A stretch of 64,000 nt of DNA from positions 34,389 through 98,388 of the forward strand of contig MWCX01000088.1 in the NCBI GenBank assembly GCA_002070265.1, read 5' to 3'. The position numbers were made by a program, and so were the translations under genes. Below the pieces are notes generated by a model, which saw only the letters and a list, made by a program, of their open reading frames with translations, was not told the origin of the DNA and searched no databases. The DNA is from Bacteroidetes bacterium ADurb.Bin174 (GTDB lineage: Bacteria; Bacteroidota; Bacteroidia; Bacteroidales; Paludibacteraceae). Positions 9,369-43,842 of the stretch are shown piece after piece; position 1 is the stretch's first letter; each line of letters begins with the position of its first letter.

Positions 9369-12110
9369 ATGATTCACCTACTACAACATCGCATATTAGT
9401 CCTGGATGGAGCCATGGGTACCATGATTCAGCAGCATAAGTTGAAGGAGGCTGATTATCGTGGGAGTCGATTTGCGGAAGCAGCCATTCCTCAAAAAGGA
9501 AATAATGATTTGTTGGTGCTGACACAGTCGGAGATTATCCACAATATTCATTGTCAGTATCTAGAAGCCGGTGCCGACATCATTGAAACCAACACCTTCA
9601 ATGCCCAGTCCGTCTCTATGGAAGATTACGGCATGCAAGAACATGTCAGGGAAATCAACCTGGAAGCGGCGCGTTTGGCAAGGAAGGCAGCAGATGCATA
9701 TACGGCAAAGACACCTGACAAACCAAGATTCGTGGCAGGATCTATCGGTCCGACCAACAAAACCACCTCGCTTTCTCCGGATGTAAACAATCCTGCTTAC
9801 AGGGCTATCACCTTTGATCAATTGGCGGTTGCCTACAAGGAACAAATGCTCGCTTTGATTGAGGGTGGTGTGGATGCACTTTTGATTGAAACTATTTTTG
9901 ACACTTTGAATGCCAAGGCTGCGATTTTTGCTGCCCATGAAGCCATGGCAGAAGCAGGTAAAAAAGTGGGGCTGATGATATCTGTAACCGTTACGGATAA
10001 AAGCGGCAGAACTTTATCAGGACAGACCATACGCGCCTTTCTCGCTTCCGTAGAGCATGCGGATATCCTGTCCATAGGATTAAACTGTTCTTTCGGAGCC
10101 AAGGACTTGAAACCCTATTTGCAGGAAATCGCCAAATACAGTCCGCACTACATCAGCGTATATCCCAATGCCGGCTTGCCCAATCAGTTTGGCGAATATG
10201 ATGAAAGTCCGGAAACCATGGCGGCACAAGTTCAAGAATTCATAGACGAAGGCTTGGTAAACATCATTGGCGGCTGCTGCGGAACTACCCCCGAACACAT
10301 TGCTGCCTTTGCGCAAATGGTAAAATTTGCTGATTTGCGCACCCCTAACGATGCCAAAGAAGATGAAGGAACATTATACCTTTCAGGTTTAGAACATCTG
10401 GCAATCAAGGAGGACTCGTTGTTTGTAAACATAGGTGAGAGATGCAATGTTGCCGGCTCCAAGAAGTTCTTGCGCTTGATCAATGAGAAAAAATACGAGG
10501 AAGCTTTATCCATTGCCCGCCAACAGGTATCGGACGGTGCCCAGATCTTAGACATCAATATGGATGATGCAATGTTGGATGCTGTGCAAGAAATGACTAC
10601 TTTCCTCAACTACGTCGTATCCGAACCGGAGATATCCAAGGTTCCGATCATGATTGATTCTTCCAAATGGGAAGTGATAGAAGCCGGATTGAAATGCGTA
10701 CAAGGCAAATGCGTAGTTAACTCCATCAGTTTGAAAGAAGGCGAAGCAAGTTTTATAGAGAAAGCAAAAAAAATTCGTGCCTATGGTGCAGCCATAATTG
10801 TAATGGCTTTTGATGAAGTCGGGCAGGCAGATACCTTGGCAAAGAGGATTGAAATTTGCGGGCGTTCTTACAAACTGTTAACCGAAAAAGCAGGTTTTCC
10901 TCCAAGCAATATTATCTTCGACCCGAATGTATTACCCATCGCCACCGGCATGGAAGAACATAATAACTATGCCGTTGATTTTATTGAAACCATTCGTTGG
11001 ATAAAGTCAAATTTACCTTTTGCACGGGTCAGTGGCGGCATCAGCAACCTGTCCTTTTCCTTTCGCGGCAACAATATTGTGCGCGAAGCCATACATTCGG
11101 CCTTCCTTTACCACGCCATTCGTGCAGGTCTTGATATGGGGATTGTAAATGCCGGCATGTTACAGATTTATGAGGAAATTCCTAAAGAGTTGTTGGAATA
11201 TGTTGAGGATATCGTATTGAACCGCCGACCGGATGCTACGGAACGCATGATAGCCTATGCGGAAAAGATAAAATCAGAAGCTTCAGGAGAAGGTGCAAAA
11301 GGTAAAAAAGAGGACGAATGGCGTACACGTGATTTGCAAGGTCGTTTGGAATACGCCCTTATCAAAGGCATTAGTGATTATATGGAAGAAGATTTAACGG
11401 AAGCTCTTCAGCAGTACGAAACAGCATTGGACATCATCGAGCAACCCCTGATGAACGGAATGAATACAGTGGGTGAATTGTTTGGCTCAGGAAAGATGTT
11501 TCTGCCGCAAGTGGTAAAAACCGCCCGCACCATGAAAAAAGCCGTAGCCTTTCTGCAACCCTATATAGAAGCGGAAAAAGCACCCGGAGAAAGCGCATAT
11601 GCAGGAAAATTCCTGATTGCTACCGTAAAAGGCGACGTGCATGACATAGGAAAAAGCATCGTAGCAGTAGTGTTAAGATGTAACAACTACGAAGTCATTG
11701 ATTTAGGGGTGATGGTTCCTGCCGAAACACTTATTGAAACAGCCATCAAAGAAGATGTGGACATTTTGGGCGTAAGTGGCTTGATCACACCTTCTTTGGA
11801 AGAAATGACAATAGTGGCTTCCGAAATGGAAAAAGCCGGATTGAAAATACCTTTGCTGATTGGTGGAGCGACCACCTCCAAAATACATACGGCAGTGAAA
11901 ATTGCACCCAACTACAGCGGACCGGTAATTTATTCGAAAGATGCATCAGTCAATACACAGATAGTTGCACAACTGACCAATCCCAATACCTATGCGTCAT
12001 TTACTGCTGAAATAGCTGATGAATACAAGCAATTGAGAGAAAAACAAATGACGAAAACAAATTTGCTCTCTTACGAAGAAGCGCAAAAACGCAAACCAAA
12101 TCTATTTTAG
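9369..12110 (+). CDS. metH: Cobalamin-dependent methionine synthase (Hcy-binding, pterin-binding, cap and B12 domains; no C-terminal AdoMet activation domain)
   Basis: [35 protein letters not shown] and DVHDIGK motifs; ends at 913 aa. Confidence 0.95.
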
Positions 12111-12160
12111 GATCTTCGTTAAATTCAAATTTAAAAAAATACGAGAGAATATCCAAAGAC

Positions 12161-12199
12161 AAAAAAGCCAACTATCTCACAATGATTTAGTTGGCTTAA
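12161..12199 (-). terminator. Intrinsic terminator of NHL gene copy 1 (may also serve convergent metH)
   Basis: aagccaacta...tagttggctt stem with an A6 run on the + strand (U-tail on the - strand). Confidence 0.75.
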
Positions 12200-12370
12200 T
12201 CTTATTAATTAATGAACATCCCTAACTCCTTTAACTTCCTGACTACTAACTACTATCTACCAACTACTTAACTTCAATAATCAGTTCTTAGTTTTTAGTT
12301 CTTCGTTCTTCGTTTATTTTTACGCTTTTGTCCCGAAATCGTCTTTTGTCTTTATTCTTTACTCTTTGTT

Positions 12371-13591
12371 CTACCTCACCACCACTTTCTCTACTCCGCC
12401 ATTTACTTTTACCATATATACACCTTGTTTCATAGGTATAGTATGACTTCCTGCGGACAGCGTGCTGCTATAGATAGCTGCTCCTGTAAGCGAATAGACC
12501 TGCACATTTATCTTATTTGGCGAGCTGATAGCTATCTCCCCTTTTCTTGCTGTAAGACTATATTCTTTATCTGCGGCAGCATCTGCTACGCCGGTAATGG
12601 TAAACGTTATCTTGCGGATTTGGTGGTTGTTATAATCGGCTACGTATAAATCCCCGGATGAGTCAAATGCCAATCCACGAGGCTGATCAAATCTGGCACT
12701 TGCTCCGATGCCATTGACATTACCGCTTGTCCCCGCTACACCGGCAATGGTGGTAACCACGCCGTCCGGCAAGGTTATTTTACGTATGGTATGGTTACCT
12801 GCATCACCGATATATAAATGTCCGTCGGGACCAATAGCTATTCCGTTGGGCCACTTAAAACTTGCTGCCGTTCCGGTACCATCTGCACTCCCTTCGGTAC
12901 CACCTGCTACAGTGGTTACTACACCGGCAGGGGTTATTTTCCGAATGGCATTATTAACATTGTCTGCCACATAGATATTTCCGGAGGCATCCATCGCCAT
13001 CTTTCTGGGGCAATAAAACCGGGCTGCATTACCCGTCCCGTTTATAAAACCACTTTCTTCGCCACCACCTGCGAGCAGTGTTTTTTCGTTTGTTGCGGTT
13101 ATAATTTTATATACCGAATGATTATCACTTACATATAAATTACCTGTGGCATCGCTGCATAATCCTGTGGCGTAATTATAAATTCCATAGTCACTCATCA
13201 GGGTAACTTCGCCTGTTGCCATATCAATCCGGTTTATTCGACCAGTGCTTGGGCTACTTCCTGTCTTGATTACATAGAGTTTACCGTCTGCCAATGCCAT
13301 TTGATTAGGATGTTCTGCTGATGCAGTATTAAGGGTGCTTACCGTGCCAGAAGCTATTTTCCGTACAGCATTGTTCACATAGTCTGATACATAAAGGTTG
13401 CCGCTTCCGTCAAAAAGGAGAGCCTGTGGCCCTTGGAACCGAGCTTCCAATAAGTTGCCGTCTGTATATCCGGCCGTACTACCGGCGTAAGTACTTACCG
13501 ATACCGATACCTGTGCCTGTACCGCACTTGCCGTCCACAACAGAAGGGCAGCAAGGATAAATAATGTAATTTTTCTTTTCATGATTTTCAT
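12371..13591 (-). CDS. NHL-repeat beta-propeller protein with T9SS C-terminal sorting domain (copy 1)
   Basis: Signal peptide, repeated GTGxAARF..P.G.A.D..GN.YVAD..N..IRKIT units, and a CTD ending GVYMVKVNGGVEKVVVR. Confidence 0.9.
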   Translation of the reverse strand: MKIMKRKITLFILAALLLWTASAVQAQVSVSVSTYAGSTAGYTDGNLLEARFQGPQALLFDGSGNLYVSDYVNNAVRKIASGTVSTLNTASAEHPNQMALADGKLYVIKTGSSPSTGRINRIDMATGEVTLMSDYGIYNYATGLCSDATGNLYVSDNHSVYKIITATNEKTLLAGGGEESGFINGTGNAARFYCPRKMAMDASGNIYVADNVNNAIRKITPAGVVTTVAGGTEGSADGTGTAASFKWPNGIAIGPDGHLYIGDAGNHTIRKITLPDGVVTTIAGVAGTSGNVNGIGASARFDQPRGLAFDSSGDLYVADYNNHQIRKITFTITGVADAAADKEYSLTARKGEIAISSPNKINVQVYSLTGAAIYSSTLSAGSHTIPMKQGVYMVKVNGGVEKVVVR

Positions 13592-13678
13592 TTTTTTGTT
13601 AGTTATTAAATGGATTTAAAATAAGATTGCTCCAACATATTTATCAATTCTGCTTTTAATTGAATGAAACGAATATCT

Positions 13679-16291
13679 CTATTTAGCTTTGATGATGCGC
13701 TTAATCTCATTCAACTTATTTAAGGCTTCAACGGGAGTCAGGTTATCGATGTCCAAGTTTTTAATTTCATCGCGGATTTGTTCCAAAACAGGATCGTCTA
13801 ATTGGAAGAAGCTGAGTTGCATGCCTTCGCGCTGACCGGCAATTTCCGTTATCGGTTTAGTAATTTCGCCTTGTCTGTTATCCGTTTCTAACTGTTTGAG
13901 TATCTGGTCGGCTCTTTTGACAATGCTTTGTGGCATACCCGCCATCTTGGCTACATGGATACCGAAGCTGTGTTCGCTTCCGCCACGCTCCAATTTTCTC
14001 AGGAAAATGATTTTCTTATCAATTTCTTTCACCGACACATTGTAGTTTTTGATGCGGCTAAAGGATTTTTCCATCTCATTCAATTCGTGATAATGAGTAG
14101 CAAAGAGGGTTTTTGCTTTGGCATGCGGATGCTCGTGGATATGTTCCACAATTGCCCAGGCAATGGAAATACCATCATAGGTGGAAGTACCCCTGCCCAA
14201 TTCATCAAAAAGTATCAAACTTCTGTCCGAGAGATTATTTAAAATACTGGCAGCCTCGTTCATTTCTACCATAAAAGTAGATTCGCCCTGAGAGATATTG
14301 TCGCTGGCGCCTACACGTGTAAAAATCTTATCAACAAGCCCAATGCTTGCACTTTCTGCCGGAACGAAGCAGCCGATTTGAGCCATCAGGGTTATCAGGG
14401 CTGTTTGGCGCAGCAAAGCGGATTTCCCCGACATATTCGGACCGGTAACGATGATAATTTGTTGACTGCTGCTATCAAGATACACATCGTTGGCAATATA
14501 TGATTCACCCACAGGCAACTGCTGCTCAATCACCGGATGCCTCCCTTGTTTGATGTCAATCACATCGCTATCGTTAATATTCGGACGGATGTATTTGTTC
14601 TCTGCTGATACTTTTGCAAAAGAAAGCAAGCAGTCTAATTGAGAAATTAAATTGGCATTCAATTGAATGGCTGTGATATAGTCAACCAGGCTCAACACCA
14701 ATTCATTGAATAACCTGGTTTCTATTTGCAGGATTTTGTCTTCAGCCCCTAGTATTTTCTCTTCGTATTCTTTTAGTTCCTGGGTGATGTATCGCTCCGC
14801 ACTCACCAAAGTTTGCTTGCGTATCCAGTCGGCAGGGACTTTATCCTTGTGCGTGTTCCTGACTTCAATATAATAACCGAAGACATTGTTAAAGCTGATT
14901 TTTAAACTTGGAATGCCGGTATGCTTACTTTCTCTTTCTTGTATTTTTTGTAGATATTCCTTTCCTGAATAAGCTAAATCCCTCAACTCATCTAACTCGG
15001 CATCAACACCTTCCCGGATAACGTTCCCTCGGTTAATCATCGTTGGCGGATCAGCATGAATTTCTCGTTCGATTTTTTCCGAAATAACTTGACAAGGGTT
15101 CAATTGGTCTGCTATCCGGTTCAAAGCAGGATTGTCGGCTTGAGAACACAGTTGTTTGATAGGCTCTATGGCTTTTAAGGCTGTTTTGAGTTGCACCACT
15201 TCCCTTGGGTTAATCCTTTCAACCGCTACTTTAGAAATGATTCTTTCCAGATCGCCAATCAAGGATATATTTTGCACCAATGAATCTTTAATTTCAGGAT
15301 GTTTGAAAAAGTACTCAACCACGCCCAATCGTTCTTGTACAGGTTGCACATCCTTAAGTGGAAATGCAATCCAGCGTTTCATCATGCGGGCACCCATGGG
15401 AGAAATGGTTTTGTCCAATACCTGCACCAGGGTTTTAGCACCTTCATGTATAGAACTAAAAAGCTCTAAGTTCTTGACAGTAAAGCGATCTAACCACACA
15501 TAACGCTCTTCCTCTATGCGTGACAAATGCGTGATGTGTCCGGTTTGCTGATGCAGCGTAATGTCTAAATAATGCAGAATGGCGCCTGCAGCCACTATGG
15601 CAAAAGGTAAATTTTCAACGCCAAAGCCTTTCAGCGTGTGGGTTTCAAATTGTTTAAGCAGTCTTTCTTCAGCAGTTACGGGTGTGAACACCCAATCTTC
15701 TAAGCCATAAGTGTAAAAATTATTACCGAAATGTTCGGTGAACAATTGTTTTTTATTTCTGTCGTATAAAACTTCTTTCGGACTGAAATTATTCAGTAAT
15801 TTGTCCACATATTCAGCCGTTCCTTCAGCAACCAGAAATTCTCCGGTAGAGATATCCAAAAAGGCTACACCTACCATTTTTTTATCGAAATATACCGAAG
15901 CCAGGAAATTATTTTCTTTGTGGTTTAAAGTGGTGTCGCTATAAGATACGCCTGGGGTAACCAGTTCCGTAACACCTCTTTTAACCAATTTTTTGGTTAA
16001 CTTAGGGTCTTCCAACTGGTCGCAAATGGCTACTCGCTTGCCGGCACGCACCAATTTAGGCAGATAAGTGTCCAGGGCGTGGTGGGGAAATCCTGCTAAT
16101 TCCACAGATTTTGCGGCGCCGTTGGCACGGCGTGTTAAAGTAATGCCTAAAATTTCGGAAGCAATGATGGCGTCTTCGGAAAATGTTTCATAAAAATCAC
16201 CACAACGAAACAACAAAATAGCATCCGGGTGTTTCGACTTAATGTTGAAATATTGTTTCATCAAAGGGGTTGTAGCAATTTCTTTGGACAT
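13679..16291 (-). CDS. mutS: DNA mismatch repair protein MutS
   Basis: [37 protein letters not shown] and FATHYHEL motifs. Confidence 0.98.
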
Positions 16292-16465
16292 GTTTTATGT
16301 TTAAATATTGTTGGTAGTTGCTGTTGGTGCGCCCAGGATAAAGAGCGTGCTAATTATACCAATCTTTTTTCTCTTATGCAAATTTAAAAGAATTTCTTTG
16401 AAAATTTTATTACCCGACAAAAAATCACTTAATTTGCAAAGAAAAAAAATTAAATACAAATTCCA

Positions 16466-16645
16466 ATGAAAATTCTGAAAACCCTCCTGAGATACTTAGG
16501 TCCCATTATTTTATTGATTGGTGCCGCTTTACTGGTAGTGTATTATTTTCAAGCAACAGCTGAAAATACCTTGTTGATTGTATCTGCTGCTTTGATGGTT
16601 GTTGGTGTTATAGCCCATGTTGTTATCAATAAGTTTATGGAGTAG
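16466..16645 (+). CDS. Small two-TM membrane protein (59 aa), divergent from mutS; missing from the ORF track
   Basis: Translated by hand: MKILKTLLRYLGPIILLIGAALLVVYYFQATAENTLLIVSAALMVVGVIAHVVINKFME*. Confidence 0.75.
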   Translation: MKILKTLLRYLGPIILLIGAALLVVYYFQATAENTLLIVSAALMVVGVIAHVVINKFME

Positions 16646-16923
16646 TCATACTTTATTTGTTCTTAAATTTAAATTTAAGAGCGGAATTGATAAATATGTT
16701 GAGGGGGCTACCGGACCTTTAAAATGAACCCGAAAAACCACACATATACGCATTACTGTTGCGGGAATACCCGTGCCGTGCCTTACTGTGAAATGGCAGT
16801 AGCGGCTTTACCCCCCCCCTCCCCTATTAACACTTATTAACAAAACGATAATTTTACCTATTACCCCGTGCCATACAGGTGCGGGGATACTTATTTTAAA
16901 TCCATTTAATAACTAACAAAAAA

Positions 16924-18132
16924 ATGAAAATCATGAAAAGAAAAATTACATTATTTATCCTTGCTGCCCTCCTACTGTGGACGGCAAGTGCGGTACAGGC
17001 ACAGGTATCGGTAAGTACTTACGCCGGTAGTACGGCCGGATATACAGACGGCAGCTTATCGGAAGCTCAGTTCGACCAACCGCAGGCTCTCCTTTTTGAT
17101 GAAAGCGGTAATCTCTATGTGGCTGAAAACAACAACGAAGCTGTACGGAAAATAACCCCCGAAGGCACGGTAAGTACTCTTACAACCGAAAAAATTTATT
17201 GGCCCTTTCAAATGACATTAGCAGACGGCAAACTCTATGTGATGCAGCGTGCGATAAGCTCTTATATAAATCAGATTGATATGACAACAGGTGCAGTAAC
17301 AATCACGAGCTATGGTAGTTATAATTATAGTCTTGGTTTATGCAGCGATGCCGCAGGAAATTTATATGTAAGTGATTACCATTCAATATATAAAGTGCCA
17401 ACTGATACCAGGCAAAAAACACTGCTTGCGGGCGGTGGTTCTGAAAGCGGCTTTATAAACGGAACAGGTAGTGCAGCTCGGTTTAATTACCCCGGATATA
17501 TGGCAATAGATGCCTCCGGCAATATCTATGTAACAGATGGGGAAAATCACGCAATTCGGAAAATAACCCCTGCTGGTGTAGTAACTACTTTGGCAGGAAG
17601 CGGTACCGCAGGTAGTGCGGACGGTACCGGAGCGGCGGCAAGTTTCAATAGACCCTCCGGAATAGCTATCGGACCGGACGGACATTTATATATCAGTGAA
17701 TCAGGTAATCATACCATACGGAAAATTACCTTGCCGGACGGCGTAGTTACCACCATTGCCGGTATAGCGGGGACAAGCGGTAATGACAATGGTAGCGGAG
17801 CAAGTGCTACATTTTACACTCCCCGTGGATTGGCGTTTGATGCAGTCGGTAATCTGTACGTAGCTGATTATAGTAATGACCAAATCCGCAAGATAACATT
17901 TACTACTACCGGCGTAGCAAATGCTGCGGCAGATAAAGAATATAGCCTTACAGCAAGAAAAGGGGAGATAGCTATCAGCTCGCCAAGTAAGATAAATGTG
18001 CAGGTGTATTCGCTTACAGGAGCAGCTATCTATAACAGCACGCTGTCCGCAGGAAGTCATACTATACCTATCAAGCAGGGTATATACCTGGTGAAAGTAA
18101 ACGGTAAGGCAGGAAAAGTGGTGGTGAGGTAG
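16924..18132 (+). CDS. NHL-repeat beta-propeller protein with T9SS C-terminal sorting domain (copy 2)
   Basis: Paralogue of 12371-13591 with an identical signal peptide and a near-identical CTD. Confidence 0.9.
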   Translation: MKIMKRKITLFILAALLLWTASAVQAQVSVSTYAGSTAGYTDGSLSEAQFDQPQALLFDESGNLYVAENNNEAVRKITPEGTVSTLTTEKIYWPFQMTLADGKLYVMQRAISSYINQIDMTTGAVTITSYGSYNYSLGLCSDAAGNLYVSDYHSIYKVPTDTRQKTLLAGGGSESGFINGTGSAARFNYPGYMAIDASGNIYVTDGENHAIRKITPAGVVTTLAGSGTAGSADGTGAAASFNRPSGIAIGPDGHLYISESGNHTIRKITLPDGVVTTIAGIAGTSGNDNGSGASATFYTPRGLAFDAVGNLYVADYSNDQIRKITFTTTGVANAAADKEYSLTARKGEIAISSPSKINVQVYSLTGAAIYNSTLSAGSHTIPIKQGIYLVKVNGKAGKVVVR

Positions 18133-18281
18133 ATAGAGCAAAGAACAAAGACAAATTTGTTTAATGCTTAATGTGTAGTGTTTAGTATTTTGTTGAATTG
18201 TTGAACTGAGAACAAAGAACAAAAAACTAAGAACTGATTTAGTTTTCTATTTATAAAGAGATGTTCATTAATTAATAAGAT

Positions 18282-18319
18282 TAAGCCAACTAAATCATTT
18301 TGAAATAGTTGGCTTTTTT
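18282..18319 (+). terminator. Intrinsic terminator of NHL gene copy 2
   Basis: taagccaacta...tagttggctt stem followed by a T-run. Confidence 0.8.
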
Positions 18320-18408
18320 ATGTTTTTGGATATTACCTCGTGTTTACAGATTTTGGCTCAAAACGGGGGTAATCAACTACTGAAGATACGGCAAGAATAT
18401 ATATTGGG

Positions 18409-18565
18409 GCTGTCTCAAAAGTAAATATTCAAGCAAAAAACCGCAAGGTGTCTTAGAAGCGTCCAAATGCAAGGCGCTGAGATTGAGGACGAAGGAGCAT
18501 ATTGAAGTATGCGACTAAGCCCGAATATCGAAAGCAACGCAGCAGTTGGGCACTTATGAGACACC
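18409..18565. mobile_element. MITE-like element with GTGTCTCA...TGAGACAC ends (outer left end plus inner element at 18447-18565)
   Basis: gctgtctcaaaagtaaatattcaa ... ggtgtcttagaag ... cagttgggcacttatgagacacc; homologous to 43599-43727; no transposase. Confidence 0.7.
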
Positions 18566-18582
18566 GCCATTGATTTACATCA

Positions 18583-19920
18583 TTAAAACAACAACCAGGA
18601 AGCCACAGAAAAATAAATAACCACTCCGCATATATCCGTAATAGATGTAATCAGTGGTGCACTTGCTGTAGCAGGGTCAATTTTCAATGTGGTAAAAATA
18701 AACGGCAGCAACATACCAATCAAACTACCGGCCACCACTATCAAAACCATAGTCAGCGACGCCACCCAAATAATTTCCGGAGACCGGATACTGGCAATAA
18801 GGGCTACCCCCACAGCCATGGTCACGCCCAATAAAAGCGACACCAACAGTTCCTTGCCTATTAATTTATACCAGTCGGAAAGTTCAACATCCCCGGTTGC
18901 CAACGAACGAATCATCAAAGTTGCGGATTGAGAACCGGCATTCCCGCCGCTACCGATTAACAATGGTAAGAAAAAGACCAAAGAGACATATGCAGTGATC
19001 GTTTCTCCAAAACTTGCAATGGCAGCACCCGAAAAAATATTGACAAAGACCAATGCCACCAACCATACAATACGATTCTTATACAGTTCAGTCACCCTCT
19101 CTTTCAAAGGATTGGTAATAGCCGACTGAAACGCCCCGAATTTGTGGAAGTCTTCGGTTGATTCTTCTTCCACCACGTCCATGATATCATCCACCGTCAC
19201 AATTCCCAGAAGTATGCCTTCGTCGTTGACAACGGGCAATGCTACCCTGTCGTAATCACTAAAAGCCTTAATGGCAGCCTCCTGATCATCCAGCACATTC
19301 AGCGCTACAAAGCGACTGTCCATCAAATCTTCAATTTTTTTAGTGGGATCAGCCAGAATAAGTTCTTTGATTCTGAGATCATCAAGCAACTTCCAGTCTT
19401 CACTTACAATATAAATTACATTCAGCGTTTCGGAATCTCTGCCGAATTTCCGGATGTGATTAAAGGTTTCTTCGATGGTAAAACTGGGTTTTACAGCCAC
19501 ATATTCCGGAGTCATCAAACGACCGATACTATCTTCCGGATATCCTAAAAGTTGTGTAGTGATGCTGCGTTCTTCCGGCAACAACAATTGCATGAGACGT
19601 TGTGTTACCGTACCGGGAAGTTCTTCGAAGAAAGCCGTTCTGTCATCAGGTTCAATGTCGTTCAATAAATTGGAAAGCGTTTGCACATTGTTAGCCAAAC
19701 CCTCAATGACTTGCTCCTGAATATCGTGCGACAAAAGTTGGAATACGTCCTTAGCCTGCATTCGACCGAGCAGTCTAAAGTAGATTATTTCTTCACCTTC
19801 CGAACAATCCTCAATCAATTCGGCTATCTGGATGGAATCATAAGCATTCAAGGCTCCTTTTAATGCCTTCCAATCCTTATTTTCAATAAGATGTTGAAAG
19901 TCGGTTTTGAATTCAACCAT
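18583..19920 (-). CDS. mgtE: Magnesium transporter MgtE
   Basis: MgtE_N, two CBS domains (GRLMTPEY, ALPVV) and a TM domain with GGNAGSQ and DPATASAP. Confidence 0.96.
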   Translation of the reverse strand: MVEFKTDFQHLIENKDWKALKGALNAYDSIQIAELIEDCSEGEEIIYFRLLGRMQAKDVFQLLSHDIQEQVIEGLANNVQTLSNLLNDIEPDDRTAFFEELPGTVTQRLMQLLLPEERSITTQLLGYPEDSIGRLMTPEYVAVKPSFTIEETFNHIRKFGRDSETLNVIYIVSEDWKLLDDLRIKELILADPTKKIEDLMDSRFVALNVLDDQEAAIKAFSDYDRVALPVVNDEGILLGIVTVDDIMDVVEEESTEDFHKFGAFQSAITNPLKERVTELYKNRIVWLVALVFVNIFSGAAIASFGETITAYVSLVFFLPLLIGSGGNAGSQSATLMIRSLATGDVELSDWYKLIGKELLVSLLLGVTMAVGVALIASIRSPEIIWVASLTMVLIVVAGSLIGMLLPFIFTTLKIDPATASAPLITSITDICGVVIYFSVASWLLF

Positions 19921-43465: not shown

Positions 43466-43598
43466 GAGTACAATGTTTTATCAACCGCGTAAAAATACAT
43501 ATTTTTTCAAAAAATACTGTCTTTACTGCGTTATAAAAGAATATACTTTTAAAACAGACAGGGCAATCTCAACACAAATATTCAACTAAAAATAATAA

Positions 43599-43727
43599 GG
43601 TGTCTCAAAAGTGTCCATATGTGAGACTCTAAGATTGAGGACTGTAGAGGAAGACTTGCGCGTCTGCCCTCGGTGACTGAGCTCAAATATCGAAAGTAAC
43701 GAAGCAGTTGGGCGCTTATGAGACACC
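43599..43727. mobile_element. MITE-like element with 13-bp terminal inverted repeats
   Basis: GGTGTCTCAAAAG ... CTTATGAGACACC (1 mismatch); interior homologous to 18447-18565. Confidence 0.8.
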
Positions 43728-43842
43728 GACCAATACCGACAGAAATGCAACAAAAACATGAAAAAGCAATGACAAGTTTCGGAAAAAAGATACTTATCTT
43801 GGAAGAAACATTAACTTTGCGCCTGGATTAAATATCAAAATA

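Follow-up and report, generated by a model that had tools for sequence, protein, structure and literature searches.

Two genes for NHL-repeat proteins, c1 and c2, form an inverted pair around mutS in Bacteroidetes bacterium ADurb.Bin174, a member of the Bacteroidales from an anaerobic digester, and here we examine this pair within a 64,000-nt stretch of its metagenome-assembled genome (MAG; 2.95 Mb in 93 contigs). This stretch, contig C88:34389-98388, is referred to as the window; the nearest species genome to it is a Bacteroidales MAG from a biogas reactor. An earlier note, made from the letters of this DNA alone, had described two outward-pointing genes enclosing mutS and a gene for a 59-aa protein with a structured 3' region. 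This anatomy was confirmed, since open reading frames (ORFs) and alignments place c1 on the minus and c2 on the plus strand, and Pfam matches and folding (z = -3.6) support what lies between them. The gene order is metH, c1, mutS, orf59, c2, mgtE (Table 1). The window represents lineage A, and we compared it with lineage B (G004, L025 and L059-L064; about 88% DNA identity), lineage C (L022, L023 and L027-L041, from many samples; about 90% DNA identity) and lineage D (L058). The position of metH is syntenic across all four. The mutS product carries MutS domains I-V, all present and in order, as befits the MutS1 type, and a motif scan placed a -7 box, TAAATTTG, at 16386 on the minus strand. A Pfam search with the orf59 product matched no family; its conservation is 80% in lineages B and C and 45% in G002.

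The c1 and c2 proteins are 79% identical (about 82% at the DNA level), and residues 45-215 of c1 constitute a divergent allele. Pfam identified NHL repeats in c1 and c2 (E values of 4e-35 and 1e-28, respectively), and the T9SS (type IX secretion system) type A sorting domain TIGR04183 scored 29.6 bits in both copies against a cut-off of 23, with PF19910 matching as well. The N-terminus of the NHL copies, MKIMKRKITLFILAALLLWTASAVQAQ, was read as a signal peptide by eye, and the secretion machinery is represented in the genome by GldM/PorM (TIGR03517, 404 bits, contig C38). With a sorting domain, an N-terminal signal peptide and machinery in the same genome, both proteins are predicted to be T9SS type A cargo. 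Lineage C has a single NHL gene, to which c2 is orthologous, with 92.6% protein identity and 93-100% DNA identity. When the NHL family was sought in 102 species of the genus it was present in G000 and G004 only.

The c1 and c2 units align over about 1.5 kb, with identity graded from 60% to 100%. Their best inverted block is a 124-nt repeat in which 121 positions match (98%; 3 mismatches), and inside it lies an exact run of 81 nt, at 13545-13625 on the left arm. The earlier note had described a sharp common start 34 bp before both ATGs, and the 124-nt repeat does begin there, but homology does not end at this edge: it resumes beyond the block as a 27-nt inverted repeat (93% match). The gap between the block and this element is 7 nt at c1 and 188 nt at c2, the latter being a leader that we call L. 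A relaxed Bacteroidota -7 box, TAAATATG, was found by motif scan within the 27-nt element, which we regard as a putative NHL promoter. Each arm looks like a whole transcription unit, made up of the 27-nt promoter element, the 34-nt leader, the coding sequence and a 3' flank. Two small observations can be added. A tandem GTATCG (a Val-Ser repeat) directly follows the signal peptide at 13504-13521 and 16994-17005, with one unit more in c1 than in c2, a small slippage-type length polymorphism. A third NHL/T9SS paralogue lies at G000 C43:94862-96061; it shows 66% protein identity to c2 and has a similar signal peptide and C-terminal domain without the common 34-nt leader.

L precedes c2 and the orthologues of c2 only. 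Its conservation in lineages A, B and C exceeds that of its surroundings, and its folding is significant (z = -3.6), with two compensatory pairs. It ends in a 9-bp terminator-like hairpin (16864-16886) and a T-run, right before the common leader. An Rfam scan of 12000-18600, L included, gave no match at E<=1, and among 102 species of the genus L was found in G000 and G004 only, so that it appears clade-restricted. Scans for sigma-70 promoters and terminators gave no more sites than shuffled sequence did, and the hairpin at 16864-16886 alone was used. L may be transcribed from the 27-nt element and serve c2 and its orthologues as a 5' leader or attenuator, and we regard it as a candidate for an attenuator or a cis-regulatory RNA acting on a T9SS cargo gene. 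The c1 gene has no L and sits 87 nt behind mutS with no terminator between. With L before c2 only and c1 close behind mutS, the two genes would be regulated differently. The earlier note had also supposed that c2 could be fed by the small-gene transcript, but simple read-through from orf59 is doubtful because the terminator-like hairpin closes the small-gene region before the c2 leader.

Table 1. Features of the NHL/T9SS locus, in window coordinates.
Feature	Position	Strand	Basis or remark
metH (B12-dependent methionine synthase), left anchor, convergent with c1	9369..12110	+	Pfam S-methyl_trans, Pterin_bind, B12-binding
T1, copy of ~85-nt dispersed repeat, hairpin and T-run, terminator-like	12137..12223	-	Inverted repeats I5, I10
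I7, 36-nt 3'-flank repeat; the 3' untranslated region (3'UTR) of c1 here meets the flank common with lineage C	12279..12314	-	89% match to 18204-18239
c1, NHL-repeat beta-propeller, signal peptide, T9SS type A C-terminal domain	12371..13591	-	406 aa
Left arm of 124-nt inverted repeat (34-nt leader and signal-peptide coding)	13502..13625	-	98% match
27-nt element, c1 side	13633..13659	-	Repeat I11, motif scan
mutS (MutS1 type, 870 aa), core of the block inverted between lineages	13679..16291	-	Pfam MutS_I to MutS_V
orf59, small hydrophobic 59-aa protein, divergent from mutS	16466..16645	+	ORF list
27-nt element, c2 side	16675..16701	+	Repeat search, motif scan
L, conserved structured leader, 188 nt, upstream of c2 and its orthologues only	16702..16889	+	Alignment, folding
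Right arm of 124-nt inverted repeat; leader identical to that of c1	16890..17013	+	Alignment
c2, NHL/T9SS paralogue	16924..18132	+	402 aa
c2 3' flank: 3'UTR common with lineage-C gene (to about 18217), I7 (18204-18239), T2 (18257-18345)	18133..18345	+	
Dispersed element resembling a miniature inverted-repeat transposable element (MITE), 166 nt, between T2 and mgtE	18405..18570	.	Second copy 43561-43728
mgtE, right anchor, convergent with c2	18583..19920	-	Pfam MgtE_N, CBS, MgtE

Divergence between c1 and c2 is far from uniform. The number of synonymous substitutions per synonymous site (dS) is 0.10 over codons 1-45, 0.74-0.83 over codons 45-215, 0.52 over codons 215-335 and 0.24 in the C-terminal domain. 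Nearest neighbours switch along the gene: the G004 gene in the slot occupied by c1 (slot 1) has a c2-like 5' half (dS 0.2) and a 3' half closer to c1, and further mosaic alleles are present in the database (P0005, P0041, P0081, P0084, P0111 and P0121). The 34-nt leader is identical in c1, c2 and G004 slot 1, and that of c2 differs from the leader of its lineage-C orthologue by 7 positions and 1 indel, with gene bodies that are 93-100% identical. The simplest reading of these alignments is that a recent c1-to-c2 conversion tract, covering the leader and signal-peptide region, created the near-identical 124-nt repeat; the sharp boundary is then explained because such a tract would end where homology ends, at L. 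A dS mosaic, switching neighbours and a leader of apparently converted type are what a pair comparable to tufA/tufB would display. In addition, the identity of c2 to the lineage-C gene exceeds that of the flanking housekeeping genes (89-93%), and in two contigs, L067 (GCA_033809055.1) and L072 (ERZ772708), identity to the window changes within a few kb, from about 99% to about 93-94%. The excess identity of c2 and these mosaic contigs indicate that exchange between co-resident lineages also occurs. The C43 paralogue was considered as the donor of the divergent middle of c1 and was rejected, as its dS is 0.7-0.8.

We then considered the locus in the sister lineages. Lineage B has the same order and orientation as lineage A, and its slot 2 holds an unrelated T9SS cargo gene of 292 aa in place of c2, which retains the L leader, signal-peptide start, C-terminal domain and 3'UTR of c2. 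This suggests that slot 2 is a cassette site, where cargo is replaced by recombination at the conserved ends. The 292-aa gene, carried by lineage B and by a near-G000 hybrid, was located at 5369-6247 in L006, 2750-3628 in L059 and 2241-3119 in L067. In lineage D the order is mutS, a c1-like mosaic allele and metH. Lineage C, which was walked upstream across a prophage by four protein look-ups, reads aminotransferase, mgtE, mutS, a Mu-like prophage, orf59, L, NHL and metH; without the prophage the order is metH, NHL, orf59, mutS, mgtE. Its single NHL gene is located between orf59-L and metH, and the 3' ends of mutS and mgtE are 20-30 nt apart. The prophage, a transposable element of ~35 kb between mutS and orf59 that was seen in many samples (L036-L041 and L029-L035), encodes an S24 repressor, a 692-aa transposase-like protein, an AAA_22 MuB-like protein, DUF3164, Portal_Mu, Mu_F, gp36 and a resolvase. 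We had considered lineage C as a simple single-copy deletion form, which was rejected since its mutS lies beyond the prophage in the opposite orientation.

Relative to metH and mgtE, the mutS-orf59 core of lineage C is thus opposite in orientation to that of lineages A, B and D. The earlier note had advised comparing mutS orientation in related assemblies, and its view of the locus as inversion-prone is upheld by this result. In six other species of the genus mutS directly precedes the aminotransferase gene and shares its strand; the shared strand is also seen in lineage C. Because lineage C keeps this genus-wide co-orientation and the window does not, the orientation in the window is the derived one. 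The core inversion is a fixed difference between lineages, with crossover sites that we infer from the ends of homology. On the mutS side, homology with lineage C begins right at the mutS stop codon (13680). The lineage-C NHL gene is c2-like through its coding sequence and about 85 nt of 3'UTR and resembles the c1 flank from I7 onward. Both of these historical breakpoints are outer ones, at the mutS stop and in the NHL 3' flank, and neither falls at the inner repeat. The inverted block therefore probably comprises mutS, orf59, L and the original NHL gene, which is now c2, and c1 is probably a second NHL unit at the other junction.

Within lineages the picture is uniform. The programmed 3.3-kb switch proposed in the earlier note, which would flip 13626-16889, was not seen: strain contigs that span the 5' repeat from unique to unique sequence, from 8 samples for the c1 side and 4 for the c2 side, were all in the reference orientation, and some others (L012, L051) break off where the repeat begins, which is what de Bruijn graphs would lead one to expect. 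The 18 lineage-B contigs and more than 20 lineage-C contigs likewise each show the orientation of their own lineage. No inner-repeat isomer occurred among about 20 contigs encoding exact c1 or c2, and no reciprocal recombinant junction among 20 mgtE contigs and 11 mutS contigs retrieved by exact look-ups. The note had reported no recombinase in the window, and this extends to the whole 220-kb contig C88: the genome has nine matches to the tyrosine recombinase family (PF00589), none of them on C88, and no match anywhere to the serine recombinase family (PF00239). No invertase is therefore encoded nearby, although one could act in trans from elsewhere, and the repeat is a whole gene unit of ~1.5 kb instead of the short conserved inverted repeats that define invertons.

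We consider it likely that the locus is an inverted paralogue pair shaped by homologous recombination in the manner of tufA/tufB, with one fixed inversion and no programmed switch. This interpretation builds on the anatomy, the mosaicism, the difference in orientation between lineages and the single orientation within each lineage, which were observed directly. As for the order of events, an ancestor resembling lineage C (metH, NHL, orf59, mutS, mgtE) would have had one NHL gene. A second NHL unit would have been acquired, and the mutS and orf59 block, probably with the original NHL gene, would have been inverted via homologous recombination between inverted repeats, giving the order now fixed in lineages A, B and D. 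Afterwards the arms, and the alleles of co-resident lineages, would have kept swapping patches by gene conversion, the latest patch being the c1 leader and signal-peptide region copied onto c2 to yield the 124-nt, 98% repeat. The arrangement would now be stable in the population, and a present-day flip would be a rare by-product, presumably of RecA-type recombination, and not a recombinase-driven phase switch.

Several points weigh against this interpretation. A recombinant c2/c1 junction is present in one contig of 2082 nt, L024 (ERZ795061; k-mer coverage 2.8). Over its first 1291 nt this contig matches 16716-18006 (L, leader and c2 body) without a difference, and over its last 763 nt it is identical to the end of the c1 C-terminal domain, the c1 3' flank and metH, with the switch point within a 28-nt exact stretch of the C-terminal domain; it is the only contig found that encodes its chimeric protein. 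The junction is the one expected from a crossover in the C-terminal domain that inverts the core, and could also stem from a c2-to-c1 conversion or a low-coverage mis-join. If L024 is real, a recombinant or inverted isomer exists in a present-day population. Assemblies, moreover, report the majority form, so that a minority orientation below roughly 10-20% would be invisible. Finally, the long flank from I7 to T is on the metH side in lineage A and on the mgtE side in lineage B, a difference that implies more than one exchange; recombination at the locus may be more frequent than rare.

Four other explanations were weighed. A mis-join in the MAG, giving rise to the second copy or to the inverted layout, had been named in the earlier note as a way in which its proposal could fail, and might be suspected of a source genome in 93 contigs. 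It is already effectively refuted and retains a negligible probability, because the layout was recovered from at least 12 independent samples: exact-protein look-ups of c1, c2, mutS and mgtE retrieved contigs collinear with the window and 99.8-100% identical to it (JGI, ENA, Logan), as overlapping pieces from different assemblers, and a 206-kb JGI contig has the same 12.6-kb layout at 100% identity. An old duplication without recombination, in which purifying selection on leader, signal peptide and sorting domain maintained the high identity at the 5' and C-terminal ends, has in its favour that signal peptides and T9SS C-terminal domains are functionally constrained and that the N-terminus and C-terminal domain of the C43 paralogue have stayed similar as well. 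Conservation extends to synonymous and non-coding sites, however, dS being 0.10 over codons 1-45 against 0.74-0.83 in the middle, the leader is 100% identical between c1 and c2 yet 7 positions and 1 indel away from that of c2's own orthologue, and nearest-neighbour relationships change along the gene; we regard this explanation as very unlikely. Slightly less credit still is due to a programmed inverton, in which a site-specific invertase encoded elsewhere would flip 13626-16889 at the sharp inner boundaries, as in Bacteroidales-type phase variation. Both ATGs do have a sharp boundary 34 nt before them, many Bacteroidales invertons are likewise flanked by genes for surface proteins (PMC11892184), and any of the nine tyrosine recombinases elsewhere in the genome could act in trans. 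Against it stand the lack of a recombinase on the 220-kb contig and of a serine invertase in the genome, the graded identity of a 1.5-kb repeat with no short conserved core, and the single orientation in all assemblies. Homology resumes past the 188-nt indel, so the sharp edge is merely the end of homology; the sharp repeat is young, given the recent conversion of the c2 leader to the type found in c1; and lineage B has the same core orientation despite a diverged slot-2 leader.

A flip-flop that needs no recombinase, in which homologous recombination between the arms would invert the core at a frequency relevant for variation, is unlikely in our view, though several points are on its side. 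A crossover in the 124-nt repeat would move L and its attenuator-type control between NHL variants, and one in the C-terminal domain would swap whole gene bodies between flanks; L024 shows exactly the junction that the latter predicts, with 100% identity to either side of it. The arms also have exact runs (81 and 50 nt) of sufficient length to act as recombination substrates, conversion has left recent tracts, at least one flip of the core has taken place, with A/B flank patterns that suggest more than one exchange, and the copies differ by L with its terminator-like end hairpin. Yet the inner-repeat isomer was absent among the roughly 20 exact c1/c2 contigs and the reciprocal junction among the 20 mgtE and 11 mutS contigs, L024 is a single contig at coverage 2.8, and every lineage is fixed for one orientation. 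A bolder form of this idea, to which we give a little less weight again, is that the pair is a device for antigenic or regulatory variation without a dedicated recombinase, in which RecA-type flips at a low but useful rate would move L or the NHL bodies, the MutS whose gene lies within the flipping segment would set the rate, and L024 would be a captured isomer. If true, variation would here be based on inversion without an invertase, in a compact natural system.

The 3' flanks proved less informative about the pair. The earlier note had pointed to similarity between terminator blocks at 12140-12220 and 18260-18342; the two are similar, but they are copies of a dispersed repeat and not specific to the pair. 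The genome carries this ~85-nt terminator-like repeat 18 times, on 12 contigs and each time immediately after an unrelated gene, the other G000 contigs being C37, C81, C36, C79, C18, C85, C83, C93, C24, C25 and C23. Since it is dispersed genome-wide, the similarity of T1 and T2 says nothing about c1 and c2, and the idea that the block was part of the duplicated unit or specific to T9SS genes was rejected, as copies follow unrelated genes. The repeat has conserved flanks around its hairpin (AAGCCAACTA...TAGTTGGCTT) and a T-run, and looks like a mobile terminator element resembling repetitive extragenic palindromic (REP) sequences. The MITE-like element next to T2 has a 91% identical copy at a different locus in lineage C (L039 2668-2833), between 2-hydroxyacid dehydrogenase and ATP synthase genes.

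The locus documents genome evolution on a small scale, in which mutS lies in a block of a few kb whose orientation differs between co-resident sister lineages. The conserved ends of T9SS cargo genes (leader and signal peptide at one end, C-terminal domain and 3' flank at the other) appear to serve as homology arms for conversion and cassette replacement, and exchange through such arms may be a general route of T9SS cargo diversification in Bacteroidota. The locus also advises caution in sequence-only screens for invertons, as inverted paralogues can mimic them.

Among known systems, inverted rRNA operons or insertion sequence (IS) copies represent the general class of RecA-mediated chromosomal inversions. 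As there, homologous recombination between inverted repeats would have fixed different orientations in related lineages, but the scale here is a few kb and the repeats are protein-coding paralogues under diversification. The shufflon-type multiple-inversion loci of Bacteroides fragilis (SusC/SusD paralogues) have an adjacent tyrosine recombinase and conserved short crossover sites. A flip between paralogue 5' ends would re-assign a single upstream expression region at those loci and here alike, but the NHL locus has neither an adjacent tyrosine recombinase nor short crossover sites. The promoter and intragenic invertons of Bacteroidales (the PhaseFinder class) share with the NHL locus a Bacteroidota host, surface-protein genes beside inverted repeats, and the prospect that a flip would change which gene follows which upstream region (PMC11892184, PMC10028968). 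In known invertons a small segment is framed by short repeats, mostly tens of nt long, and flipped by an invertase, and both orientations occur within a population, whereas the NHL locus has whole-gene repeats of graded identity, a housekeeping gene inside, no invertase nearby and one orientation per lineage.

The closest parallel is tufA/tufB of Salmonella enterica, inverted paralogues that undergo concerted evolution by gene conversion, with about half of the selected events accompanied by inversion, at rates of 2e-8 to 1e-5 per cell per generation that are about 1000-fold higher in mutS mutants (PMC5485169, PMC6735719). Both systems have two inverted gene copies on one replicon that exchange gene-conversion tracts. 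Crossovers between the tuf genes invert the intervening segment, an outcome seen at the NHL locus only as a fixed difference between lineages, and MutS-dependent mismatch repair limits exchange between diverged tuf copies (PMC5485169, PMC6735719). The two systems differ in spacing (3.3 kb between the NHL copies and 761 kb between the tuf genes), in divergence (about 75% identity in the NHL middle and about 99% in tuf) and in product, the NHL copies being predicted to encode variable secreted proteins and the tuf genes encoding a core translation factor. At the NHL locus, unlike tufA/tufB, the gene that lies between the two copies is mutS itself.

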